A DNA stretch of 64,000 nucleotides from Candidatus Saccharimonadia bacterium (GTDB taxonomy: Bacteria > Patescibacteriota > Saccharimonadia > UBA4664). Shown one piece after another: positions 3,077 through 61,138 of this stretch; the stretch's first letter is position 1, and every line of letters starts with the position of its first letter. A program made the position numbers and the translations under genes. The stretch spans positions 281,454-345,453 of the forward strand of contig DATKIP010000093.1 of the NCBI GenBank assembly GCA_035544015.1. The letters run 5' to 3'. Below the pieces are notes generated by a model that saw nothing but the letters and a program-made list of their open reading frames with translations, was not told the DNA's origin and ran no database searches.

Positions 3077-3961
3077 ATGAGTCAAACCCCACCGCAATTT
3101 GTCCGCCAATCCACCGCGCCACTCTACCCGCAGGTGCTTTACAGCCGCCCCGTCACGCGTCGGGCCGGCGGCCGGCTGCTCGTGGTAGGCGGCCACGTCG
3201 GCGAATTCAGCCTCCCCACCGCCATGCACCAGTTTGCCACCGCCGCCGGCATCGGCGAGTGCACCGTCATCATGCCCGAGACGCTGGCGAAATTCTTGGG
3301 CGGCGCGCCTGGCACAGCCTTCGCCGCCGCCACACCATCCGGATCGCTCGGCGGTGAAGCCCTGGGCCGCATCCTCGAGCTCAGCGAAGAGGCCGATGCC
3401 GTGGCTATCGGCCCCAGCCTCTCAAATAATTCCGCCACCGCCATCCTCGCCGAACGCCTCGCCGCCGAGATCCAGCGCCCGCTCATCGCCTGCGACGACG
3501 GCCTAGTGGCGCTCCGGCAAACGCTCCCGGCCGTCACCGACAATCCCGAAGCACTGATCATTCTCACCATGGCCGAGCTCTTCAAGCTAGCCGGCGCGCT
3601 CGGCGTCGCCATCAACATCCGCCCCGGCGCCGGCCTCATAAACAAACTCGAAATCATCCAAAACGTCGCCGCTGCCAGCCGCGCAGCCTATGCCGTCTAC
3701 GGCACCGAAATCATCATTGCCGCCGGCGCCGAGCTCATCGTCACGCCCATCAACTACCGACTCTCGCTCACCCCGGCGCTCTTCTATGGCGCCCTCAGCA
3801 CTTTTTGGATCCAAAACCACGCCCAACCCGCCGCCGGACTCGCCACCGCCGCCTACCTCATCGCCCGCGCCGGCGACGACCTCGGACCTACCGACACCCC
3901 CACGGCTTCCGGACTAGCCATCGCGCTCACAAACGCCATCAAACAAGCCGAGAATTTCTAA
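3077..3961 (+). CDS. carbohydrate-kinase-like / YjeF C-terminal-like protein (NAD(P)HX dehydratase family, tentative)
   Basis: Ala/Gly-rich Rossmann-like protein of about 295 aa. The IGPSL motif and overall length resemble the YjeF_C / ADP-dependent NAD(P)H-hydrate dehydratase family, but the canonical GGxGD motif is not obvious. Start taken at ATG 3077, just after the stop of the upstream ORF. Confidence 0.4.
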   Translation: MSQTPPQFVRQSTAPLYPQVLYSRPVTRRAGGRLLVVGGHVGEFSLPTAMHQFATAAGIGECTVIMPETLAKFLGGAPGTAFAAATPSGSLGGEALGRILELSEEADAVAIGPSLSNNSATAILAERLAAEIQRPLIACDDGLVALRQTLPAVTDNPEALIILTMAELFKLAGALGVAINIRPGAGLINKLEIIQNVAAASRAAYAVYGTEIIIAAGAELIVTPINYRLSLTPALFYGALSTFWIQNHAQPAAGLATAAYLIARAGDDLGPTDTPTASGLAIALTNAIKQAENF

Positions 3962-4707
3962 GCCGTACCCGGTCGCTTATCCCAAGGTATAGCCTTCAGC
4001 ATCTCGCCATACAAATCCTCATCGAGCGGAATCCGCAAACTCTGAAGCTCCTCGGCCGTCGGATTACGATCCTGAAATTCCACCATATCCGCCCCCTCGA
4101 TCACCACGATCGGCGTTCGCTGCGCTCCTTCGCCCATCATCAGCACCGCCGCCGCCGCCAAACCGTCCACCATACTCGCATACGTATACTTCAGATCATA
4201 CGTCCCAAACACATCCGGCGTTCCCACATAATTATGCAACGGCGCAAACCCGCTGTGCGCCAGCCCCAAGCCCACCGTACCGCGGCGCATCGGCGTAATC
4301 CGGCTATCCGTCATCAACACCCCCACTTCGCGCCCGAATCGCCGGCGCAGATGCTCCCGGATCCGATTGGCACTGGCCTGCGGGTCGTCCGGCCACAAGA
4401 TATAATTCCCATCACCATTCGATTCATCAATCCCCGCCGAGGCTATCAAAATATCGCGATTCACCGTCACCATCACGCCGTAGGGATTATATTCCGGCGG
4501 CAGGTAATACTCCGATTCGCGCCGTACCAAGGCTTCTTTCGCCTCCGCGCCAAACTTCACCACCCGGCCCTCGCACAGCGACACCACCTTCGCCGTCACC
4601 GCCAAAATCGACCGCTCCGGCATGTCTGTCACATACCGGTCCACCAGCTCCAGGAGGTCAAGCTCCCCAGCCCGCACCGCGTCGGTTTGAATCGTCGTTA
4701 ACTTCAC
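3958..4707 (-). CDS. CofE-like gamma-glutamyl ligase family protein (F420-0:gamma-glutamyl ligase family)
   Basis: 249 aa. SAGIDESNG-type motif, KVVS...EGR segment, and length and layout typical of the CofE / FbiB N-domain family. GTG start at 4707 overlaps the TGA stop of the upstream gene, forming GTGA. Confidence 0.55.
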   Translation of the reverse strand: MKLTTIQTDAVRAGELDLLELVDRYVTDMPERSILAVTAKVVSLCEGRVVKFGAEAKEALVRRESEYYLPPEYNPYGVMVTVNRDILIASAGIDESNGDGNYILWPDDPQASANRIREHLRRRFGREVGVLMTDSRITPMRRGTVGLGLAHSGFAPLHNYVGTPDVFGTYDLKYTYASMVDGLAAAAVLMMGEGAQRTPIVVIEGADMVEFQDRNPTAEELQSLRIPLDEDLYGEMLKAIPWDKRPGTA

Positions 4708-5378
4708 GCCCGGCCTTTCACAAATCGATAATGCAAGTATACCTCGTCACCCTCAGCGCGATGATCCAGCAATTCGAGCTCGGGCACCTCATCGGGCGCA
4801 AATAACACCCCGTTAATCATAGTGGGCGTACCAAACGACGTCCCAAACAGCTTCGGCGCCACCGTCACGTACAGATCGTCCACGAGCCCCGCCGCCACCC
4901 ACGCGCCAAACAGCCGCGGTCCCGCCTCAAGCGCCCCAGCCCGCCAGCCCTCGGCCGCCATGCGATCGTGCAAAGCCGGCAAATCCACCTGCCCCGACCC
5001 CTGCCGCCACACCTCTACGCCCGCCGGCACCGAAGGCAGCTGCGCCTCCTCGGTCGTCGCCACGATCACCCGCAACACCGCGCCCTTGGGATCCACCTGC
5101 GCCAAGAGCGCCTCATCTGGATGCGCGCTCACCACCACATACACATACGGCCCCGCATGCTCATACCGCGCCAAAGCCGCCCCAAACTCCGGCGACCGCA
5201 AGCGGCCAAGGTGATCGTGGCTCATGGCCGTCAGCCGGCCGTGCACGAGCACATCGCACTGCGCCCGCAGGTCGAGCAGCTGAGCCAAATCCGCCGCCGA
5301 GCCGATCGGCCAATAGTCCGCACCCGGCCCCTGCACCTTGCCGTCAACGGTCATCACAAAATTGGCCGCGAGCTTCAC
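4704..5378 (-). CDS. RibD C-terminal domain / dihydrofolate-reductase-family protein
   Basis: The MTVDGKV start region and VAPKLFG / GLVDDL motifs are typical of the RibD_C (DHFR-like reductase) fold. Likely GTG start at 5378 overlaps the TGA stop of the yhhQ-like gene (GTGA). The ORF track extends to 5408. Confidence 0.55.
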   Translation of the reverse strand: MKLAANFVMTVDGKVQGPGADYWPIGSAADLAQLLDLRAQCDVLVHGRLTAMSHDHLGRLRSPEFGAALARYEHAGPYVYVVVSAHPDEALLAQVDPKGAVLRVIVATTEEAQLPSVPAGVEVWRQGSGQVDLPALHDRMAAEGWRAGALEAGPRLFGAWVAAGLVDDLYVTVAPKLFGTSFGTPTMINGVLFAPDEVPELELLDHRAEGDEVYLHYRFVKGRA

Positions 5379-6034
5379 GCAGTCTTGCTCTTGTCGCCGC
5401 GCAACCATGCCACACCGGCATACACCAGCGGCGTCTCAATCACCGACATCAAACATTTCAGCAGCCAGTAGGGGATACCAACTCCCAGCAAGAAGCTCAA
5501 ATTATCGCCCAGTCCCAAAGCCGGCACATAGAACGCCAAGGTCATAAAAATCGCGGTGTCAAAGAATTGCGACACTACATTGGAGATGTTATTGCGGAAC
5601 CACAAAGCTTTTTTGTGCATGCGCTCGCGCAATTTCGAGAACACCATCACATCAAGCAAACTCGCCAAGCCAAAGGCCACCAAACTCGCCGCCGCCATCC
5701 GAATCGACGTGCCAAATACCTTATCGTAGCTGGGCTCCATAGCCGCGAAACGCGTAGACGGGGGCAAATTTGTCACCGCCAGCGCATACACCATCAGGAG
5801 CGCAATCACGATCACTCCACACATTACCAAGCTGCGCGCCCGATCCCGGCCATACACCTCCACCATCACATCCACGGCCGAAAACATCAGCGGCACTACC
5901 AAAATAGCTACGCTGGCATTGAGGTGAAATCCGAAAATCGTCCCCAGCGGAACTATCTTAGCCCCCATCAGCTCGGAAACCACAATACACAGAATATACA
6001 GCGACACTACCAGATCAAGGCGATTAATCTTCAC
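5375..6034 (-). CDS. YhhQ/DUF165 (VUT) family transporter, queuosine-precursor-transporter-like
   Basis: 219-aa polytopic membrane protein with the conserved layout of YhhQ-family 7-deazapurine / vitamin uptake transporters (e.g. the FFDT and YVPALG segments). Confidence 0.55.
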   Translation of the reverse strand: MKINRLDLVVSLYILCIVVSELMGAKIVPLGTIFGFHLNASVAILVVPLMFSAVDVMVEVYGRDRARSLVMCGVIVIALLMVYALAVTNLPPSTRFAAMEPSYDKVFGTSIRMAAASLVAFGLASLLDVMVFSKLRERMHKKALWFRNNISNVVSQFFDTAIFMTLAFYVPALGLGDNLSFLLGVGIPYWLLKCLMSVIETPLVYAGVAWLRGDKSKTA

Positions 6035-6204
6035 GCGGTACTCCCGTTTACGGCTTAATTATCCGCCCAAAGCATACCCGCCCGCAGCCGTTTTAGCCAG
6101 CTTAAGACCCAAATCGCCAACCCAACCCTCGTTCTTACCTTGACAAAATACCCAATTAGCGGTAAAAATACTCCACGCGTTCCCACTACTGATCGGAGAC
6201 GAAC

Positions 6205-7137
6205 GTGAGTACCGTTTTGTCATCGCGCCTGCCGGGCGCGCAACGCCGGGCCGCCGCCAACTGCTTGGCGATGGACATCGCCCACGCAGCCGCCTTGCTG
6301 GAGCAGCTGGAAGCCGACGACGTCGGCGCCCACTACCAGCTCAGCGAAGTCGTGCCGGGATACTTGCGCGTGACCTGGGCTACGCTCCTGCAGGACCACG
6401 GCTACAACAAGGAATACCGCGCCGCCGTCGCGGCCTACCAGCACCGACGCAACTACGAGAAGACGGTCCCTGAGCTCACGGCCGTCATGTCCACCTGGGC
6501 CGATCCGAACGGCAGCCTGGCCGCGCGGTTCGAGGCCGGCATCGCGGCGCGCCGCATCTGGGAGGACGTCTACACCAAGACCCGGCTGCCCAACGAGTAC
6601 CTCGGTCGCCTCACCACCAAGTGCGGCTCCCGGCCCCCGTCGAAGCAGCTCCAGACAGTCCTCGACGCCTACGTGCAGCAGCTGACGACCGCCGCCCAGA
6701 CCACCGGCACCGCCGCCGACAACCTGGCGGCGGCGGCCTTCGCGAAGCTTCGCCAGCTCCGGGACCGCGTCGACACGCGCTACCCCGGATTGCAGCCGCC
6801 GAACCACTGCTTCCACCTCGGCCTCACCTGGCCGACAATCCCCGACTGGAAGGAGCTCGTCAGCCGCTTCGTCAACGCACCGACGACCTGGGACCTCAAC
6901 CTGCCACCCGAGGTGGTTCCCGCCGAGTTCGTCTACGACGCCGCCCAAGTGCTCCACTCCGGCTCCGGAGCCACCCGAACCGATGCCCAGGGCCTCCAGG
7001 CCTACCTCAACGCCAGCCCCGGGCTGCGGGCGCTCACTCCCGACCTGCTGCAAACCGCCGTCGCGTGGTTCGCCGCCAACGGCGAGCGGCTCCCGATCGA
7101 CCGCTGGCTGACGGCCAGCACTGAGTCCACCCCCTAA
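6205..7137 (+). CDS. hypothetical protein (atypically high-GC gene)
   Basis: GTG start preceded by GGAGA. The 310-aa protein has normal complexity, whereas the fully overlapping antisense ORF 6220..7212 is Gly/Arg low-complexity, so the + frame is preferred. No recognisable domain. Confidence 0.45.
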   Translation: MSTVLSSRLPGAQRRAAANCLAMDIAHAAALLEQLEADDVGAHYQLSEVVPGYLRVTWATLLQDHGYNKEYRAAVAAYQHRRNYEKTVPELTAVMSTWADPNGSLAARFEAGIAARRIWEDVYTKTRLPNEYLGRLTTKCGSRPPSKQLQTVLDAYVQQLTTAAQTTGTAADNLAAAAFAKLRQLRDRVDTRYPGLQPPNHCFHLGLTWPTIPDWKELVSRFVNAPTTWDLNLPPEVVPAEFVYDAAQVLHSGSGATRTDAQGLQAYLNASPGLRALTPDLLQTAVAWFAANGERLPIDRWLTASTESTP

Positions 7138-11395: not shown

Positions 11396-11650
11396 CTACC
11401 TATAAACTTCCCGACGATTACCAATCTTAATAATCTCAACCACTAACTGTTGATCCATGACCGAGTATACAACCCGATAGTCGCCAATCCTGATCCGCCA
11501 TGCATCAACACCCGTCATCTTCTTTACGCCATGCGGTCTGGGATCGTGAGTTAGGGAATCAATCAGTTCCGAAACCTGCTTGCGAACAGAAATAGGTAAC
11601 TTACGTAGCTCCCTAGCGGCACTAGCCCGAAAGGTTACTGAATAGAGCAT
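11396..11650 (-). CDS. type II toxin RelE/ParE family
   Basis: 84 aa. C-terminal RIRIGDYRVVYSV...VVEIIKIGNRREVY matches the RelE/ParE consensus. Its start is 4 nt downstream of the antitoxin gene's stop. Confidence 0.75.
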   Translation of the reverse strand: MLYSVTFRASAARELRKLPISVRKQVSELIDSLTHDPRPHGVKKMTGVDAWRIRIGDYRVVYSVMDQQLVVEIIKIGNRREVYR

Positions 11651-11653
11651 CTA

Positions 11654-11884
11654 CTAAAGTAGTCCGTCTCGCATTAAATCTGCTTTAACTTTATCCCATG
11701 CAAGCAATGGCTCGGCCTTGCGTGCATTAATAGTTGCCACATCCTCTGCATCTTCCAGCAGCTCAGCGAGTTGATCATTGATCAGCTCTGAAATTGATTT
11801 ATTTTGTTCAACCGCCTCATGTTGCAGATATTTCTTGACATAGGGGTTTAAATAAACGGTTGTTCGCTCCGTGAGGGTAGCCAT
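11654..11884 (-). CDS. ribbon-helix-helix antitoxin (partner of RelE/ParE toxin)
   Basis: 76-aa acidic protein directly upstream of the toxin and co-directional with it. RHH-like N-terminus (TVYLNPYVKKYL ... SISELINDQL). Confidence 0.6.
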   Translation of the reverse strand: MATLTERTTVYLNPYVKKYLQHEAVEQNKSISELINDQLAELLEDAEDVATINARKAEPLLAWDKVKADLMRDGLL

Positions 11885-11965
11885 ATCGCTCTCCTTATTT
11901 AGCCTTATTCTAATGCAACAACGTCATAACGTCAAGACGTTGCAAATAACTCGTTTTCTATGCCA

Positions 11966-12388
11966 CTAGAACTCGCGGTTATCCTCTGAGATTTCAACCA
12001 AAATACCGTCTGGATCAGCCACAAAGAAATAACGAGGGCCAGTTCGGCCTTGAGTAACCTTGACATCAGAGGCGACCACAGCCTTAGCAGCCAAGTCCTC
12101 CCGCGCTGCCTCGATTGAATCTACCTTCAATCCAAAATGTTTTGTGCCAATGACGGGAAGATCCGTTGAGGTCGCATGTATGAAATCCGGAGCAGACAGG
12201 GGAGCAGCATAACAAAACAATTCTAAGATAAACTCACCATTACGAAGGTGCGTTATGCTCAAAGTCTTGTCCTCGGCCTCCCAAAGATGAACTTGCTCGA
12301 ACTCAAGTAATTTATAAAAATCTACAGATTTTTCTCTGTTTGTAACACTGATGGCAACGTGCGTGGATTGAATACATGTAAATATCAT
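11966..12388 (-). CDS. VOC family protein (glyoxalase/bleomycin-resistance/dioxygenase fold)
   Basis: 140 aa. HVAISV ... HFGLKVDSIEAA ... FFVADPDGILVEI, a paired beta-alpha-beta-beta-beta module pattern typical of VOC proteins. Low-GC gene. Confidence 0.6.
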   Translation of the reverse strand: MIFTCIQSTHVAISVTNREKSVDFYKLLEFEQVHLWEAEDKTLSITHLRNGEFILELFCYAAPLSAPDFIHATSTDLPVIGTKHFGLKVDSIEAAREDLAAKAVVASDVKVTQGRTGPRYFFVADPDGILVEISEDNREF

Positions 12389-12435: not shown

Positions 12436-12521
12436 TGGTACCGCTGGTCGGACTCGAACCGACATGACCTTGCGATCGAGGGATTTTGAGTCCCTTGTGT
12501 CTACCATTCCACCACAGCGGC
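12436..12521 (-). tRNA. tRNA-Leu (anticodon CAA)
   Basis: The reverse complement reads GCCGCTG-TG-GTGGAATGGTAGACAC-AAGGGACTCAAAATCCCT-long variable arm-GTCGGTTCGAGTCCGAC-CAGCGGT-A-CCA. It has the T-loop GGTTCGAGTCC, a 7-bp acceptor stem, an anticodon loop CTCAAAA, a long extra arm (type II tRNA) and an encoded CCA. Confidence 0.8.
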
Positions 12522-41112: not shown

Positions 41113-42633
41113 CTACGCCGCCGCCAACTCCCGCACCTGCCCGGCCGAGAGGGGAGTCACTGCCCGCCGATTGCGCGGGTTCTCCAGAAATTGCCGGATA
41201 ATCTTGTACCGATCCAGATCAAACCGCCGCACCTCCGGCTCCGACTCCACCGTGCCGTCCTCCAGCTCCCGCAGTCGCACCACCAAGCACCAGCCGTCCA
41301 CCACAAAGCCCACCGAGCCCTCCAGAGCGTCATGACGCTCCCGAATGAGTACCGGGCCGGCATACGGCCACGTCGCAATCTTCTGACGCTCAAACGCATA
41401 CGCAAACCGCTCGTTGTACTCAGCCGCCGGCATCACGCCCTCGCAGGCCCCATCACACTTGCCTAGTTGGCGCAAAAAACACGCCCGGGACGTCCGCTCC
41501 AGCCCCAGCATTTTCGGGCACAACCGGTACCGCTCCACGAGGGCCTGGAGTGAACGCCGAGCCCGACCCTGCGTCGCGTACACCGCCAACAGCCGCTCCG
41601 CCGCCTCGGGCGTAATGTCGCGCGCATCCGCCAGCTCCACGCTCGCGTACCCTTCGGGCGTCACCACCCCGAGCACCAGGGTCATCAGCTCGCGCTGTCG
41701 CAGCATCCGATTGTACTGCGGCCGCAAATCCTTGATCATATCCGATTCCAGAAGCAGCGCACTCAGTTCGCCGTGCGTCGGCACCGCGCGCAGCCGCCGC
41801 ACCGTTTGCGCCAGCTTCATCTCCATCCCGCGGCCATAATCCGAGGCGAAATGATTCATCACCCGCCGCCGCACCGTCACGCTTTTGCCTACGTACAGCG
41901 GCGCCCCCTCCCCATCCTCGAAAACGTACACCCCCGGCCCCTCGGGCAACGCCGCCACCTGAGCCGCATCAAGCTGGCTCGGCACCGACGGCGTACCCAG
42001 CTGCGCCTTCACCGCCGCCTCCACCGTATCCAGATCAAATTCCGCCAAACACAATCGCCAAAATTGCCACAAACAATGCGCATCGTCGTACGCCCGGTGC
42101 CGCACCGGCGCGCGCAAACCATGCCGCTCAATCAACGCCGCCAGCTTGTGGCTCTTAAACTGCGGGAACAATCGCCGGCTCAGCCGCACCGTACACAGCA
42201 ACGGCGGCCGAAACACCGCTCCCAGCCGCTCAAATTCCATTTTCAAAAATGCATAATCAAACCGCACATTGTGCGCCACAAACACCGCACCATCCAGGAT
42301 CTCCGCCAACTCATCCGCAATCTGCCCAAACCGCGGCGACTCCGCCACATCCGCGTCGGTGATCCCCGTGAGCCCCGTGATAAAACTCGGCACCGCCGCG
42401 TCCGGATGCAGCAGCGTTTGGTACGTCGCCACCACCCGACCGCCCTCCACCCGCATCACCGCCACCTCCAGCACTCGGCTGTTGAAATGGCTGCCGCCAG
42501 TGGTCTCAATATCGACAAACGCTAATGGCTGATGGAGTATGCTGCTCACGTTCTCATGATACAACAGCGAACGAATGCCGAACAGCGCATCCGATAACTG
42601 CAATAAGTCAACCAAATATTGCTTATCAAGCAA
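41113..42633 (-). CDS. DnaQ-like 3'-5' exonuclease fused to GIY-YIG (Cho/UvrC-N-like) nuclease domain
   Basis: Exo I motif FVDIETTG, Exo II FVAHNVRFD, Exo III HRAYDDA, then GIY-YIG GVYVF...LYVGKS...R...N. 506 aa. Confidence 0.7.
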   Translation of the reverse strand: MLDKQYLVDLLQLSDALFGIRSLLYHENVSSILHQPLAFVDIETTGGSHFNSRVLEVAVMRVEGGRVVATYQTLLHPDAAVPSFITGLTGITDADVAESPRFGQIADELAEILDGAVFVAHNVRFDYAFLKMEFERLGAVFRPPLLCTVRLSRRLFPQFKSHKLAALIERHGLRAPVRHRAYDDAHCLWQFWRLCLAEFDLDTVEAAVKAQLGTPSVPSQLDAAQVAALPEGPGVYVFEDGEGAPLYVGKSVTVRRRVMNHFASDYGRGMEMKLAQTVRRLRAVPTHGELSALLLESDMIKDLRPQYNRMLRQRELMTLVLGVVTPEGYASVELADARDITPEAAERLLAVYATQGRARRSLQALVERYRLCPKMLGLERTSRACFLRQLGKCDGACEGVMPAAEYNERFAYAFERQKIATWPYAGPVLIRERHDALEGSVGFVVDGWCLVVRLRELEDGTVESEPEVRRFDLDRYKIIRQFLENPRNRRAVTPLSAGQVRELAAA

Positions 42634-42685
42634 TATGATACCGGTCGAGCTGTAATAATTATGCTAGATTCACTACAATAAAATT

Positions 42686-42907
42686 ATGCCAACAGAATCT
42701 CACATCGAAGAAACGCCCAAGGACGACGGGACCGTAAGCGAGAAGCTCGTAGTCGAATTTAGCAATGGATCGCTCCAGCAACTCCGCGAGCTGGGCGCCT
42801 TCCTGAAGATTCAAAGTGAAGACCCTTATGAAGTAATCAAGTATGCCATCGGTATTCTAGAGAACGTAAGAGAGTCAAACGAAAAGAAACATATTTCCGA
42901 AGGCTAA
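42686..42907 (+). CDS. small acidic hypothetical protein (low-GC cassette gene 1)
   Basis: 73-aa ORF, about 45% GC. Ends 2 nt before the next ORF. Confidence 0.4.
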   Translation: MPTESHIEETPKDDGTVSEKLVVEFSNGSLQQLRELGAFLKIQSEDPYEVIKYAIGILENVRESNEKKHISEG

Positions 42908-42909
42908 AC

Positions 42910-43206
42910 ATGAGCAATACTAACCGGCAAGTTTCAGAAAAGGTTCCTGCCATTTCCCTTGACGGAACCATTGGCGACCAGATTTATGAAGCCCTACAGC
43001 ATGATCGATACAAAGCAAAAATCAACGCAATGATTCTGACTTACACCGGCACGGTAGAATTTGAAGAACTAATAATGAAGTATGCGGGGAAAGAATATGA
43101 CAATCGAATTCTCAAGAGCGGACGGTTTTGGTTCTCGACCATTGCGGTTACGGTCGTAACATCGCTCATATCCGCAGTAATCGCAGTCCTCATCGCAAAG
43201 CATTAG
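42910..43206 (+). CDS. small tail-anchored membrane protein (low-GC cassette gene 2)
   Basis: 98-aa ORF with a C-terminal TM helix (FWFSTIAVTVVTSLISAVIAVLIAKH). Low GC. Confidence 0.4.
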   Translation: MSNTNRQVSEKVPAISLDGTIGDQIYEALQHDRYKAKINAMILTYTGTVEFEELIMKYAGKEYDNRILKSGRFWFSTIAVTVVTSLISAVIAVLIAKH

Positions 43207-43213
43207 TTTTCCG

Positions 43214-43972
43214 TCACGCCGCGGGCAAATCCGCAAACACACCGCACATCAACTCATACACCTCATCGCGCAACGACTCCGGGGTGTGTTTGTCGGTCGC
43301 CAGCACCACCACGCCCTCGCCCGGATCACCCGGATGCCGCAATGCCCCGTGCTCACGCGTACGATCGCGCTCATCGCGTTCCACGATCTCTTCGAGCGTA
43401 TGCTCGCGCGACCGCTGCGCCGCCACCTCGGGTGCCACCACCAGCAGCAGCTTCAGCGGCGCATCCGGCACCACGGTGTGGCCGATGTCGCGACCGTCAA
43501 TCAACACAAAACCATCAAATTCGTTAATTTGCCGCCGCACCAATTCCGTCTCCCACTCGCGCACCGGCAGGTGCAATCCCGCGATCGAGGCCCCCGTGCC
43601 CACCCCCGGGCCCTTGAGCTGCTCGTCCACCTCGGCCGGCACGCCGTCGATCCACACCACACCACCATGCAGCTCAATTTGCCGCTGTCGCGCCAGCTTC
43701 AAAAACTCGTCGGCCGACATCTCGCGCACCAGCGCCAGCGCCGCATGGTTGATCTGCTCCGGCGTCATGTCGGCCCGACCCACCACCATATCGGCCGCCG
43801 CCTCCAGAGCCGCATACGCCACGGCCCGGTAAATCGACCCCGTCGACACATGCACCACCGGCACGCCCTTCGAACGCAGCAAAATCGCCAGCTCCTCGAT
43901 GAGCCGGCCCTTGCCGGTGGCCGTTCCGCCATCTACGGCTACTACTTTGCGGTTGCTTAATTCAATATCCAT
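43214..43972 (-). CDS. cmk: cytidylate kinase
   Basis: P-loop VAVDGGTATGKG, DGRDIGHTVVPDAPLKLLL and ERDERDRTRE align with Cmk. Start taken at ATG 43972 (the track extends to 44011). Confidence 0.75.
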   Translation of the reverse strand: MDIELSNRKVVAVDGGTATGKGRLIEELAILLRSKGVPVVHVSTGSIYRAVAYAALEAAADMVVGRADMTPEQINHAALALVREMSADEFLKLARQRQIELHGGVVWIDGVPAEVDEQLKGPGVGTGASIAGLHLPVREWETELVRRQINEFDGFVLIDGRDIGHTVVPDAPLKLLLVVAPEVAAQRSREHTLEEIVERDERDRTREHGALRHPGDPGEGVVVLATDKHTPESLRDEVYELMCGVFADLPAA

Positions 43973-44022
43973 GTCGCGCCTATTCTGACACACCCTCACC
44001 TTTATCGTCAAAACCTGGCATA

Positions 44023-44847: not shown

Positions 44848-45485
44848 TAGCAGGTACTAGGCCACGGGCTGCAACCGCGCCGGTCATACAGCATCTGCGC
44901 CCGCATATCCTGCTCGGCCGGGCTGGCGTCCGACGGCAGCCCTGAGCCTCCCACGCCCTGCCATGTGCCCAAGCTAAACTGATACGCACCATAATACCCG
45001 TTGCCAGTGTTAGTAGCGTAATTACCACCCGACTCACGCGCCCGTACCCGCGCCAGTATCCCGTCGGCACCAGCCGCATAATTGGCCGGCGCCACGCTGC
45101 GACGGGCCACGGGCGCTGCCACCGCCGCCGACGCCGGCGGTGGCAGCGCCACGCCTTCCGGCAGGGGCCGGTCGGGCACCGGGCCAGTCGGCACAATCAA
45201 CTTCTGACCTTCATAAATCAAATCAGGGTCCTGCACATCGGGGTTGGCATTCCACAACGGTCGCCAGGTCTCCAGCTGCTCACTCGTCGCGATGATCGAC
45301 AAGCTGTCACCCGCCGCCACCGTATGGGTTTTGGGTGCCGGCGGCGCTTCCACTGGCTTAGCCACCGCCGCCAAAACCACTTTGGGGCTCGGCGTCGGAG
45401 TGGCCGGCTTGCTCGGCAGCCATCCAAACGACAACGCCGCGCCAAAATTCAAAATCGTTATCGTCGCCAAAAAAGTCTGAACCAT
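44844..45485 (-). CDS. LysM domain + Rpf-like transglycosylase domain protein
   Basis: Signal anchor. LysM (HTVAAGDSLSIIA ... YEGQKLIVP). C-terminal ARESGGNYATNTGNGYYGAYQFS ... GCSPWP matches the Rpf/Transglycosylas (PF06737-like) domain. Confidence 0.7.
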   Translation of the reverse strand: MVQTFLATITILNFGAALSFGWLPSKPATPTPSPKVVLAAVAKPVEAPPAPKTHTVAAGDSLSIIATSEQLETWRPLWNANPDVQDPDLIYEGQKLIVPTGPVPDRPLPEGVALPPPASAAVAAPVARRSVAPANYAAGADGILARVRARESGGNYATNTGNGYYGAYQFSLGTWQGVGGSGLPSDASPAEQDMRAQMLYDRRGCSPWPSTCY

Positions 45486-45875
45486 GTCTTCTTTCCCTCA
45501 TTAAACACGTGGGGAAAGGCTCCTGCATATCTGCACACAGCAACCCACCGCACACAACTTCTTCACACAAAGCGGAACCCTACAGCAATTAAAAAACTCT
45601 GCAATAATGCAAAGTCATAAAAATTCACGCAACGCTACGCCGTAAGCTTTGTGATTAAGCACAAGAACAAGGTTAATACGCTTATGCTTAAAATGCTTCT
45701 GTAAAGACCTCAAAAATGGCATAAAAGCCTAGCTTTATCACAAAAAACCTGCCCTTCTTACTTTCAGTGGGTCAAAATCAAACACTACCATTACGTGGGT
45801 AGAAAGCCATCGCCGCCACGCTTTCGCCGCCAAGCCCTTGTCAGAACAAAAACAGTTTGCTAATCTGGTGGAGGC

Positions 45876-46973
45876 GTGAATAATCCGAAGACTACAAACC
45901 AGGTTACCAACACAAGCGGTCGTCCCGATGGGGGCGATTTTTTTGTAACCAAGCCAGGTCGGCTGGTTTTGGAGGGCGGTCAAAGCTTCGCCGGCCAGGT
46001 CCCCGACTGGCACCACGACGGCCTCTCCGGCGAAACCGTCTTCAACACTGGCATGACCGGCTATGTCGAAACCCTCACCGACCCGTCATATTCCGGCCAA
46101 ATTCTAGCATTTACTTATCCGTTACTGGGCAATTACGGCGTACCCGACGCCGGCACCTGGGAAAGCCAAAAAATCCATCTGCGCGGGGTGGTCGTGAGCG
46201 AGCTCACACAGGCCTGGAGCCATGTAGGCAGCCTTAAGTCGCTCGGCGCCTGGCTGCGCGAACAAAACATCCCGTTCATCACCGGCGTCGACACCCGCGC
46301 GCTCACCAAATACCTCCGCACCCGCGGCACCATGACCGGCCTCATCACCACCGCCGACCGGCCGCGACTAGCCGGACGAGCGCCCGCCAAAGTTTCAATT
46401 GAAGCCCCCCGCATCTACAACCCCGGTAAGTCTAAAACCGTCATCGCTGTGGACTGCGGCATGAAAGAAAACATCATCCGCCACTTGGTAGGGCTGGGCC
46501 TCACGGTAAAGCGCGTGCCGCACAACTACGACTACACCGCCGACGCCTACGACGGCGTTTTCATCTCCAACGGCCCCGGCGATCCCACCGATTACCAGGA
46601 AGCCACCGCCATACTCCGGCGGGCACTAGCCGGCACCAAGCCTGTCTTCGGCATCTGCCTCGGCGCGCAGCTCATGGCGCTGGCGGCCGGTGGCTCCACC
46701 TACAAACTCCGCTTCGGCCACCGCGGCCACAACCAACCGGCCGTCACCCCCGAGGGGCGCGGCTACATCACGAGCCAAAACCACGGCTACGCGGTCGCCG
46801 AGGATTCGCTGCCGGCAGATTGGCGCGTCACCTTCCGCAATCTCAACGATAATTCGGTCGAGGGCATCGCCCACCGCCACAAACCCTTCTTCGCCGTCCA
46901 ATTCCACCCCGAAGCCGCCCCCGGACCCACCGACACAGCCTGGCTGTTTGACGAATTTAGGAAGATGCTATGA
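45876..46973 (+). CDS. carA: carbamoyl-phosphate synthase small (glutaminase) subunit
   Basis: GTG start preceded by GGAGG. N-domain VFNTGMTGYVETLTDPSY. Triad motifs GICLGAQL and FAVQFHPEA. Confidence 0.9.
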   Translation: MNNPKTTNQVTNTSGRPDGGDFFVTKPGRLVLEGGQSFAGQVPDWHHDGLSGETVFNTGMTGYVETLTDPSYSGQILAFTYPLLGNYGVPDAGTWESQKIHLRGVVVSELTQAWSHVGSLKSLGAWLREQNIPFITGVDTRALTKYLRTRGTMTGLITTADRPRLAGRAPAKVSIEAPRIYNPGKSKTVIAVDCGMKENIIRHLVGLGLTVKRVPHNYDYTADAYDGVFISNGPGDPTDYQEATAILRRALAGTKPVFGICLGAQLMALAAGGSTYKLRFGHRGHNQPAVTPEGRGYITSQNHGYAVAEDSLPADWRVTFRNLNDNSVEGIAHRHKPFFAVQFHPEAAPGPTDTAWLFDEFRKML

Positions 46974-59343: not shown

Positions 59344-59973
59344 CTAGAAGTAGGTCAGGTTAGCATCTACCGTCGTGTCGTCAAGCCGGAAGTTAAGACC
59401 ACTGGCGTGATTCTTCACTTGAGCCCTCACAAAGTAGGTACACACAGCCTCCCGAGTGTTGGGCGAGCAGCGCAAGTAAGCCGTACGCGTGAAAGCGTTG
59501 CTTTCCCAGGCGTTCGGATCCACCTGGCTGTTGGACCACGCAAACGAGTCAGGCTCGGGCGCGCTTGGCTGGCCCTCGGCCCCATTAATCAGCACCCGAC
59601 CCTCGCACCACTGATTGTTCGCCGCCGCCGAGTTGGTACACGTCACCTCGCCGTCCACCTTCACTACCGCCAACGCCGACTTACCGCGCGGCACCGTTAC
59701 CGTAAACGAACCACACTGCAAATTCACCCAATCCGTCGTGGTGTAAGCAGTCGGCGTGTTATTCGTATACGCCCGGCGCTGAACCGCCGCATTCGTAGCC
59801 GAGAAGAACCGACAGTCCGGATTGGCCGCCGCCACCGCCGCTGCGTCCAACTTCTTAAACCCATCTTGCGCACTCTGCGCCTGCGTTTCCGCCAGCACCG
59901 GCCCGCCTCCGAGCACCAACAGGCCGGCCAGGCCAACACCCGCCACCAGCTTCCTTTTAAGCGTGAATTTCAT
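59344..59973 (-). CDS. secreted hypothetical protein (Cys-containing, Thr/Asn-rich)
   Basis: Start taken at MKFTLKRKLVAGVGLAGLLVL (signal peptide). Six Cys in the mature part. No domain recognised. Confidence 0.45.
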   Translation of the reverse strand: MKFTLKRKLVAGVGLAGLLVLGGGPVLAETQAQSAQDGFKKLDAAAVAAANPDCRFFSATNAAVQRRAYTNNTPTAYTTTDWVNLQCGSFTVTVPRGKSALAVVKVDGEVTCTNSAAANNQWCEGRVLINGAEGQPSAPEPDSFAWSNSQVDPNAWESNAFTRTAYLRCSPNTREAVCTYFVRAQVKNHASGLNFRLDDTTVDANLTYF

Positions 59974-60190
59974 AAACACTCCTTTTAATTGTGTCATCCC
60001 CTAAAACATCGTGAGCTCAACGACTCGACCATAATGGGCTTGCCCGAGGGATTCAGCCACTCACAGAAACGAAAACTTTCTCATCCAAAAATCAATAATT
60101 ATTAGAGATAAGCACAAGAATTAAGAGCACCACAACCCCCGCTATACATGGAAAATATTAAAAAATCCCTAACTCGGCTACATTTGCCGC

Positions 60191-61138
60191 TTATTCAGAA
60201 TCCCCACCACTCGCACGCCGAATCAAATCAAGCCCACGCTTAAAATCGTCACCCGTATCCTCGTAAGAAAGGTCTCTCAAATTCCGATAAAGCCCTGGTG
60301 AAACCCTCTCGATGCGATAAGCCACCTCACGCAACCCATCGACGTTATTGCGGGCCCGATACAAGGCGGGGATTATCTCGGGGTCTTTGGCGTTGAGCAA
60401 TTCAAACCCATATCCCGCCAGAGCGCTCGAACCATAAGCAATGGCCCCATTAGGCGCTTTGGCAATGTACTTACCTGGAATTTGGCCTAAATCCGTATCC
60501 ATGAAACCATCAATGCCGGAAAAACCATGGGGGAGACCCAGCTCATTTTGGATATAATCCATCTCCACAACGGCGCCAAAAGCCTCCTCGATAAAACCGC
60601 CTTGGCCGGCCACATTATGCCCCTGACGAAGCGGTTGGAATAATTCAGTACCATCTTCTGTTTTGAGCAGGGCCATGTCGTAGTATTTCCCACTACTATG
60701 CGACTTCTCATGAACCAGAGTCGCTTCAGAAAACCCCGGCCCATTGGCGGCCTCCATCGCAGGATCGCGAACAACAAAGGTCAACCCTACCTCGTGCAAA
60801 TATCCCCCAATAAAACTATCTTTTTCTGCCACATTATTAGAAATACCGTTAGCCGCTAAGACTCGCCGAAACTCCGGAACGTCTTCGGGCGTCAACAGAA
60901 TATGAGGCCTAACTGCCAGGCCCTTCTTCGCAAAATACGAAGCGACCCGAGCGACGTCGATGCCTTCTTCGCGCGAAGGCGTCGCCTCCATAAGACGCTG
61001 TCGAGCCTCAGCCCAGTAAGCTAAAAAGGCTTCATCATCTGATTCCTCCGCGTTCGCACGAACCAGATCGCCGCTCTTTCCGGCCTTAAAACGCATCAGA
61101 TTAGGCTCTTGATCGGGATGAAAGGGGAGTTCCGCCAT
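60191..61138 (-). CDS. hypothetical protein (lower-GC gene)
   Basis: 315-aa ORF at about 52% GC. Contains HEVGLTF ... HEKSHS, a possible metal site. No confident family. Confidence 0.4.
   Translation of the reverse strand: MAELPFHPDQEPNLMRFKAGKSGDLVRANAEESDDEAFLAYWAEARQRLMEATPSREEGIDVARVASYFAKKGLAVRPHILLTPEDVPEFRRVLAANGISNNVAEKDSFIGGYLHEVGLTFVVRDPAMEAANGPGFSEATLVHEKSHSSGKYYDMALLKTEDGTELFQPLRQGHNVAGQGGFIEEAFGAVVEMDYIQNELGLPHGFSGIDGFMDTDLGQIPGKYIAKAPNGAIAYGSSALAGYGFELLNAKDPEIIPALYRARNNVDGLREVAYRIERVSPGLYRNLRDLSYEDTGDDFKRGLDLIRRASGGDSE

Follow-up and report, generated by a model that had tools for sequence, protein, structure and literature searches.

We wanted to know what kind of genetic unit is formed by two small open reading frames (ORFs), ORF1 and ORF2, which lie together between the cytidylate kinase gene cmk and a DnaQ-type exonuclease/GIY-YIG gene in a 64,000-nucleotide stretch of the Candidatus Saccharimonadia contig DATKIP010000093.1 (this whole stretch is called the window below). 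Their host is a tiny, episymbiotic bacterium. A first-pass annotation had seen in the two genes, which we call the cassette, a foreign insertion of low GC content resembling toxin-antitoxin, abortive-infection or holin-like modules. We found that the cassette is a rare, strictly paired and relocating two-gene unit with a bias towards AT, and it appears to behave like a selfish addiction or defence cassette. Regarding its function, we favour an addiction or defence module of the toxin-antitoxin (TA) type, in which a tail-anchored effector would be neutralised by an acidic partner. We place this reading somewhat short of an even chance.

ORF1 (42686-42907, + strand) encodes 73 amino acids and ORF2 (42910-43206, + strand) encodes 98 amino acids, and the gap between them is 2 nt. 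They match exactly the NCBI entries HVQ44902.1 (VMT30_08165) and HVQ44903.1 (VMT30_08170), both annotated as hypothetical proteins, from a metagenome-assembled genome (MAG) of Candidatus Saccharimonadia, where they lie on a contig of 525 kb. The ORF2 stop (43206) is separated by a 7-nt junction, TTTTCCG (43207-43213), from the stop codon (43214) of the convergent cmk gene (43214-44011; PF02224, E = 4e-25). The C-terminus of cmk is undamaged and can be aligned with those of relatives. On the other side, the exonuclease gene is divergent from the pair (RNase_T, E = 1e-30; GIY-YIG, E = 2e-4). The gene arrangement given by the first-pass annotation (two + strand ORFs 2 nt apart, 7 nt to the cmk stop, a divergent exonuclease gene) was borne out in full, as was its description of the products as an acidic protein of 73 and a tail-anchored membrane protein of 98 amino acids, with an isoelectric point (pI) of 4.68 for ORF1 and a C-terminal hydrophobic segment in ORF2.

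Are these genes real? We compared them with the closest copy of the cassette (locus L013), in which the amino-acid identity to the window copy is 95% for ORF1 and 90% for ORF2. The proportion of nonsynonymous differences (pN) was 0.03 for ORF1 and 0.06 for ORF2, and that of synonymous differences (pS) was 0.73 and 0.86, respectively, which is saturated. Five further pairwise comparisons gave the same pN/pS picture, while the small antisense ORFs of the cassette region had no homologues and no signal of purifying selection. Judged from these comparisons, ORF1 and ORF2 are not chance ORFs but real genes, on which purifying selection acts strongly. Across the family comparisons ORF1 evolved faster than ORF2 (pN 0.22-0.29 vs 0.14-0.23). 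Antitoxins commonly evolve faster than their toxins.

We located relatives of the window by a scan with the exonuclease protein, with one genome per species, and two close relatives were found. In the nearer one (L014, exonuclease 77% identical) cmk and the exonuclease gene are 33 bp apart and nothing lies between them. In the other (L015, exonuclease 74% identical) the spacer holds, in the orientation of the cassette, a gene for a 194-amino-acid CYTH-domain protein (3346-3930; PF01928, E = 6e-11). Alignment of the junctions placed the insert of the window from approximately 42586 to 43206-43213, that is about 620 bp. Of the native spacer, the 36 nt next to the exonuclease gene (42550-42585, - strand) are still present in the window; they contain the -10 box of the exonuclease gene and align with the spacers of both relatives, and the homology with them ends at CCGAACAG (42578-42585). 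Nothing in the 33-bp spacer of L014 corresponds to the 5' non-coding part of the insert (42586-42685, + strand), which holds a palindrome and a promoter. The cmk-exonuclease spacer seems to be a site of repeated insertion. Among the clusters retrieved from a collection that contains the L014 proteins, no member of the ORF1 or ORF2 family was found on the 829-kb contig of L014, so that this nearest relative seems, a very divergent copy aside, to be without the cassette altogether. The cassette is thus not conserved at its position, and the claim of an insertion between housekeeping genes holds: the closest relative has nothing at this site and the next has a different gene, and all other carriers have the pair at other loci.

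The family to which the cassette belongs is small and scattered. Close homologues of ORF2 (n = 21, 57-90% identity) and of ORF1 (n = 8) came from Saccharimonadales/Saccharimonadia, from the 'Patescibacteria group' and from unnamed metagenomic contigs. A profile search with ORF2 of 1.84 billion cluster representatives recovered 48 proteins at E <= 1e-3, of which 43 are 86-109 amino acids long and have a common architecture, and a metagenome scan with alignment A2 gave 3 loci. We inspected 15 independent contexts. Each of them is a different locus and no two have common flanking genes. An intact ORF2 homologue with an ORF1 homologue directly upstream was observed in 14 of the 15, at a spacing of -14 to +15 nt. 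The ORF1-like partner is kept even beside ORF2 members only 25-34% identical to the ORF2 of the window, and these distant upstream proteins share with ORF1 the core KLVV-F-S-N-G-x-L-x-Q-L ... V-V-K-x-x-I-x-x-L-E. At L021 (4010-4162), beside a gene for a MarR-type regulator, an ORF2 homologue is reduced to its last 50 codons and ORF1 is absent; this is a decaying copy of the cassette. The flanking genes include LysM-CHAP and YceG, CarS and CDP-alcohol phosphatidyltransferase, RNase HII and DnaE, FemAB and UvrD, DUF5671 and LeuRS, a HinP1I-type restriction-modification system, and cytochrome oxidase genes. Of the 15 contexts one alone has a defence-type neighbourhood, L027 (1512-3665), where a distant pair lies directly downstream of a restriction-modification cluster (DNA methylase, HinP1I-type endonuclease, Vsr). 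We also sought orthologues shared by the window and the flanks of cassette-bearing loci, by which the divergence of the cassette could be compared with that of housekeeping genes, and found none. No second copy of the cassette was found in the window.

The base composition of the cassette is unusual for its surroundings. Its GC content is approximately 44% (0.43-0.45), compared with 62-66% in the flanking genes and a mean of 59.3% in the window. Among segments of 574 bp in the whole 64 kb it ranks lowest in GC (z = -3.1; 0.5% of the segments are equally low), and its GC content at third codon positions (GC3) is 0.48-0.53 vs 0.71-0.77 in the adjoining genes. Of the figures first annotated, about 45% for the cassette was right, while 63% for the chromosome was too high, the window lying at about 59-60%. 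We observed the same bias elsewhere. The GC content of the cassette was below that of its surroundings in 14 of 14 contexts (mean difference -0.097) and correlated with host GC (r = 0.85), and the GC3 deficit relative to the host was -0.10 to -0.28 (mean -0.17, r = 0.88). Since GC3 itself is depressed, amino-acid composition does not explain the low GC. Since the GC of the cassette follows that of the host across the contexts, a single recent import is disfavoured. The label of a foreign low-GC cassette therefore holds in so far as this is an accessory mobile insertion, with the qualification that the low GC is not the mark of one recent import. Plasmids, phages and insertion sequences (ISs) are reportedly always AT-richer than their host yet follow it (Rocha and Danchin, 2002). 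By this comparison, the GC pattern of the cassette is that of long-resident selfish elements.

The window itself offers an internal control. Its second-lowest-GC stretch (11396-12388, - strand, GC 0.43) carries a ParE toxin gene, a gene for a ribbon-helix-helix (RHH)-like antitoxin and a glyoxalase-family gene, beside tRNA-Leu(caa) (12436-12521), and is probably a small island integrated at the tRNA gene. The ParE-family toxin has 84 amino acids (PF05016, E = 5e-11), and the antitoxin encoded upstream of it has 76, with RHH matches that are all below threshold. This ParE/RHH pair (11399-11884) is a recognised selfish module of the same genome with equally low GC. Two other stretches with a GC of 0.46 were seen, one at 45415-45988 in the long intergenic region upstream of carA and one at 59951-60524.

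The insertion site and the composition bear on another explanation, that the two genes are an ancient, vertically inherited housekeeping pair of this lineage, moved about by decay of synteny and low in GC owing to amino-acid or expression constraints. The correlation with host GC, the tight embedding among core genes and the saturation of synonymous sites even between the closest copies, which implies no recent transfer, would all suit such a pair. However, the adjacency of cmk and the exonuclease gene is kept in relatives and the cassette is not, the 829-kb contig of L014 yielded no homologue, and 48 representatives in 1.84 billion protein clusters are very few. Moreover, a GC3 deficit of 0.10-0.28 is present in every host and does not come from amino-acid composition, a truncated copy exists at L021, and the association with an IS described below is not explained. 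The present data already point to many gains or transfers, and we consider vertical inheritance very unlikely.

If the cassette relocates, what carries it? In two lineages a transposase gene of the IS1595 family of DDE transposases (Pfam Zn_ribbon_IS1595 and DDE_Tnp_IS1595) is convergent to ORF2 and lies 0 nt (L009/L010/L011; L009 5292-6233) or 28 nt (L012; 5553-6470) past its stop. The transposases of L009 and L012 are 42% identical. At L006 a remnant of 51 C-terminal residues of such a transposase (5344-5502), which shares 76% identity with that of L012 (E = 1e-19), lies, also convergent, 44-50 nt past the ORF2 stop. The arrangement ORF1> ORF2> <Tnp is thus common to three lineages, and the transposase is decaying in one of them, which offers a plausible route to copies without a transposase such as that of the window. 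In our best explanation the cassette belongs to a rare, horizontally mobile and hitherto undescribed family of Saccharimonadia and other metagenomic genomes of the Patescibacteria type, and the window copy is now stranded in the cmk-exonuclease spacer without a transposase.

A stronger form of this idea is that an IS1595-family transposon carries the pair as a passenger or accessory module, which either serves it (in regulation, immunity or stabilisation) or rides on it, and that the window copy is what remained after loss of the transposase. Members of the IS1595 family with passenger genes are known in ISfinder (ISPna2+, ISNwi1+), and the cassette resembles them in that, in three lineages, an IS1595 DDE transposase gene is the immediate neighbour of the pair. 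At L009 an inverted repeat matching at 13 of 14 nt, GGCTGTCTACACCT / AGGTGTAGACAGCT (4527-4540 / 6174-6187), brackets the pair together with the transposase; by our own estimate 0.003-0.01 such repeats are expected by chance. At L012, however, the best candidate IS ends (5527-5540 / 6469-6482, 11 of 14 nt) leave the cassette outside. No target duplication enclosing pair and transposase was identified. Furthermore, the trees are discordant, as the L006 transposase is nearest to that of L012 and the L006 cassette is nearest to that of L009; this would be explained equally well by IS1595 elements that inserted beside the cassette more than once. The transposase or its remnant is present in only 3 of the 15 contexts. 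The window has no transposase, no remnant and no flanking terminal inverted repeat, only one weak repeat pair inside the ORFs, and the best match of the IS1595 transposase to it in a tblastn search (E = 0.05) lies 11 kb from the cassette. A transposon passenger would in any case name the vehicle and not the biochemical function, so it can coexist with the TA reading or with an accessory role. As an account in its own right we find it improbable. Near the transposases we also noted tRNA genes just beyond the transposase start (L009 6330-6404, Arg-gcg; L012 6602-6678, Ser-gct). A tRNA piece of about 13 nt is repeated between tRNA and transposase at both loci and may be the trace of an integration site. 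At the cassette of the window there was no Rfam match and no tRNA nearby.

We then consider the proteins. ORF2 has a single strongly hydrophobic C-terminal segment at residues ~74-97 (codons 43129-43200, + strand; KD19 = 2.67), followed only by Lys-His. Because the basic stretch NRILKSGR precedes this transmembrane segment, the predicted topology is that of a tail-anchored protein whose N-terminus lies within the cell. The cytoplasmic domain of ~70 amino acids is helical and highly conserved, with the motif YAGKEYDNR-LKSGRFW, and 34 columns are invariant among the 21 close homologues. Throughout the family the N-terminus varies and is followed by a conserved helical region, by an aromatic residue, in most cases W, and by the transmembrane helix. 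The family consensus is F-M-x-K-V-x-x-Y-A-G-x-E-I-D-x-R-x-F-x-S-x-K-x-W, in which Y58 is invariant and F51, A59 and D64 are nearly so. Small or polar residues are kept family-wide in the transmembrane helix (T84 in 31 of 46 sequences; S/A/T85, G/T/S88, A/T/G92). Conservation at positions 84, 85, 88 and 92 is compatible with helix-helix packing or oligomerisation.

ORF1 is a soluble protein with a net charge of -7. Its AlphaFold2 model (pLDDT 82) has two strands (4-11 and 17-24) forming a beta-hairpin and two helices (27-39 and 47-71). The conserved core (KLVVEFSNGSLQQL...VIKYAIGILE) is made of strand 17-24 and the two helices, which are kept in distant homologues. The modelled order of these elements, strand-helix-helix, is that of RHH proteins. 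Foldseek searches of PDB and BFVD with the model gave nothing at E <= 0.001; plant TCP domains, which are RHH-like, were among the top matches (TM 0.37-0.43, E > 0.5). We regard ORF1 as RHH-like in its predicted topology only, and binding of a protein as more likely than binding of DNA.

The observation that no family could be recognised remained true after exhaustive searches (Pfam, NCBIfam, PHROGs, PADLOC, PDB, BFVD), and the predicted structures (pLDDT 82 for ORF1 and 56 for ORF2) gave no significant fold match; no clear homology to a housekeeping family emerged. When 46 members of the ORF2 family and 15 of the ORF1 family were scanned singly, only scattered noise in single members was obtained (GerD, DUF2951, KwaA, TOTE Mu-Gam), and the defence models of PADLOC-DB 2.0 likewise gave only scattered single-member matches with E > 5e-4. 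Profile matches in PDB to GerD (E = 0.054) and interferon-gamma (E = 0.27) were rejected as helical noise. Searches for relatives by tblastn of ORF1 and ORF2 against INPHARED and PLSDB and by scans of IMG/VR with both alignments were negative.

These results bear most directly on the holin-like possibility raised by the first-pass annotation, namely that the pair is a lysis or superinfection-exclusion remnant of a degraded prophage. ORF2 is indeed a small membrane protein, one weak PHROG match of unknown function was seen (E = 0.018), and at L001 a gene for a LysM-CHAP hydrolase adjoins the pair. That hydrolase gene is divergent, though, and belongs to one context out of 15; no phage genes were present in any of the 15. 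PHROGs gave no consistent match, and INPHARED, IMG/VR and BFVD gave none. In addition, no known holin has the topology of ORF2, in which one anchor at the C-terminus is combined with a large, conserved domain in the cytoplasm. This possibility failed the checks, and there is hardly any likelihood left for it.

How could the pair be expressed? The start of the exonuclease gene is most likely GTG 42549, as in the relatives, and not TTG 42633 of the longest ORF, and therefore the divergent intergenic region is 136 bp long. A -10 box, TACAAT (42674-42679, + strand), lies 6 nt before the ATG of ORF1. A TAnnnT box 6-7 nt before this ATG is the sole non-coding feature kept across all loci (invariant columns T190, T195/A196 and T200), and homology of DNA between loci extends from it to the ORF2 stop. 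Between the window and L013 the homology reaches ~50 nt further upstream, so that only the last ~50 nt of the 5' non-coding part are common to this closest copy. A consensus scan found no full sigma-70 promoter and no intrinsic terminator. With the box at 6 nt from the ATG, the ORF1 mRNA is probably leaderless. The exonuclease gene has its own -10 box, TATCAT (42561-42556, - strand), at 6 nt from its probable GTG start. At L015 a TATAAT box precedes the ATG of the CYTH gene by 7 nt. Because this distance between box and start is the same at the exonuclease and CYTH genes, leaderless mRNAs are apparently usual in this lineage; the boxes suggest that such transcripts are common there. In all, -10-like boxes (TACAAT, TATCAT, TATGAT, TATAAT) end 6-7 nt before the starts of ORF1, of the exonuclease genes and of the CYTH gene (window 42674-42688 and 42547-42561; L014 3966-3982; L015 3930-3946 and 4001-4016).

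Midway between the divergent promoters of ORF1 and the exonuclease gene, at -70 to -50 from the ORF1 ATG, there is a perfect 9-3-9 palindrome, ATATTGCTT-ATC-AAGCAATAT (42616-42636). It belongs to the insert-specific DNA and is not kept in L013. By our own estimate approximately 0.01 palindromes of this kind are expected by chance in 136 bp. We consider it a candidate protein-binding site or element boundary. Unrelated palindromes with arms of 9-10 nt and loops of 12 nt lie over the promoters of L006 and L022.

By their sequence, the two genes share one promoter and a single, probably leaderless mRNA, and the 2-nt spacing suggests that their translation is coupled. On the favoured TA reading, ORF2 would insert post-translationally into the cytoplasmic membrane by its C-terminal helix with the helical domain left in the cytoplasm, a predicted orientation that fits the basic juxtamembrane stretch. 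If unrestrained, it might oligomerise through the polar stripe of the transmembrane helix or engage a target close to the membrane, and so cause growth arrest. ORF1 would bind the cytoplasmic domain and keep ORF2 inactive, and may, more speculatively, also repress the promoter. The pair would thus most probably act as two interacting proteins, of type II or resembling type IV. Were the cassette lost or its expression shut off, ORF2 would then be set free, and this would explain why a rare, selfish cassette with an AT bias persists in very small genomes, with strong purifying selection acting on it.

We prefer this mechanism because it best fits the gene order, the coupling of the genes, the faster evolution of ORF1 and the lack of any intact ORF2 without ORF1. 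Two traits of TA modules were found directly. The genes are small, adjacent and co-directional with minimal spacing (2 nt in the window, -14 to +15 nt over 14 pairs), and the unit is patchy and mobile with no intact ORF2 lacking ORF1 (14 of 14 intact copies, a small sample). The architecture, the obligate pairing, the mobility and patchiness, the IS1595 link, the composition, the selection and the conservation of the transmembrane helix all support it. The likeness to toxin-antitoxin or abortive-infection modules named in the first-pass annotation suits both the build of the pair and its behaviour in evolution.

Several observations weigh against it. We obtained no significant match of ORF1 or ORF2 to a known toxin, antitoxin or defence protein in Pfam, NCBIfam, PHROGs or PADLOC, and the sequence and fold searches of PDB and the search of BFVD were negative. 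The structure model of ORF2, three short helices and a transmembrane helix, is poor (pLDDT 56), and the fold search of PDB with it gave no match. Conservation of ORF2 is highest in the soluble domain and not in the transmembrane helix, which is unlike simple pore-forming toxins. The only named match of the window ORF2, SpoIISA_toxin (PF14171; 14.5 bits vs a cut-off of 27, E = 0.029), was rejected since its alignment sets the ORF2 transmembrane helix against the soluble domain of SpoIISA, a misfit of topology; any match to this family was seen in only 2 of 46 members. As for ORF1, RHH models of Pfam matched none of 15 family members at E <= 1, and hhalign comparison with CopG, Arc, Mnt, ParD and FitA (reference sequences entered by hand) gave the expected register with a probability of only 0.2%. 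ORF1 is also acidic throughout, including the outward-facing strand positions, which argues against binding of DNA. No operator conserved across loci was found; only the window, L006 and L022 have strong palindromes, and these differ in sequence. Finally, many contexts are plain housekeeping neighbourhoods and not defence islands.

The main rival is a non-toxic explanation, in which ORF2 is a tail-anchored stress, envelope or host-interaction factor, ORF1 is its dedicated chaperone, pre-targeting factor or regulator, and the module has spread because it is of use in certain niches. Invariance of 34 ORF2 columns in 21 homologues suggests a specific binding or enzymatic role over generic membrane damage, many of the contexts lie among housekeeping, envelope or lipid genes, and no defence or toxin homology was found. 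Furthermore, ORF2 has the size and architecture of tail-anchored stress proteins. ElaB, YqjD and YgaM (DUF883) of Enterobacteria are proteins of ~100 amino acids. Their N-terminal domain is helical and cytoplasmic, an aromatic residue sits at the interface, and they have one transmembrane helix at the C-terminus and a basic end; ORF2 is like them in every one of these respects. However, these proteins belong to chromosomal stress regulons and are not known to have an obligatory partner gene or to be mobile. ORF2 gave no match to DUF883 at E <= 1, and none at E <= 0.1 appeared among the 25 families listed for the 46 members; no other tail-anchored family was matched. Moreover, members of the family are very few and scattered, and the nearest relative seems to lack the cassette. 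A non-toxic module does not require a composition of the selfish type, an association with ISs or strict pairing. We regard such a module as possible yet rather unlikely.

Returning to the TA reading, we compared the cassette with known systems. Type II modules with RHH antitoxins (ParDE, RelBE, CcdAB, and the ParE/RHH pair of the window at 11399-11884) are similarly bicistronic with the small acidic protein first and near-zero spacing, strictly paired, patchy, variable in location and AT-biased, and their first protein has a strand-helix-helix core. In contrast to them, ORF2 is tail-anchored and unrelated to known toxin folds, ORF1 has no RHH signal in hidden Markov model or profile searches, and there is no conserved operator. 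SpoIISA/SpoIISB of Bacillus subtilis likewise combines a membrane effector that has a cytoplasmic domain with a small acidic cytoplasmic protein, which neutralises the effector in that system. SpoIISA differs from ORF2 in having ~248 amino acids, three N-terminal transmembrane helices, a GAF-like domain and the toxin gene first, and ORF2 is not a member of its family. In CptA/CptB (YgfX/SdhE, type IV) and GhoT/GhoS (type V) of E. coli, the gene for a small soluble protein lies upstream of that for a small inner-membrane toxin in one operon. CptA has two transmembrane helices and GhoT is a 57-amino-acid peptide, and their antitoxins are a homologue of an FAD-assembly factor and an RNase, respectively; there is no sequence relationship with the cassette. 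It is conceivable, though doubtful, that the cassette represents a hitherto unknown class of mobile modules for addiction or defence, in which a tail-anchored effector with a conserved three-helix cytoplasmic domain is held in check by ORF1 and which travel with IS1595 transposases or are targeted by them. To date this class would be confined to Saccharimonadia and to unclassified metagenomic genomes of the Patescibacteria type.

In summary, a small, mobile, TA-like cassette of two genes is a familiar kind of unit, while both of its protein families and the tail-anchored effector are new to the databases searched. Saccharibacteria and other bacteria of the Candidate Phyla Radiation (CPR) have genomes of 0.5-1 Mb with few recognisable mobile elements or defence systems. 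An orphan cassette that relocates and resists decay would add a new family to the accessory gene pool of the CPR. The cassette is also a concrete example of small insertions into spacers of ~30 bp between core genes, and its recurrent link with IS1595 provides a handle on the vehicle. Should the module be non-toxic, it would be one more lineage-restricted pair of hypothetical proteins, and its interest would be lower. If the TA reading is true, the cassette could be a new kind of membrane-acting toxin-antitoxin pair.

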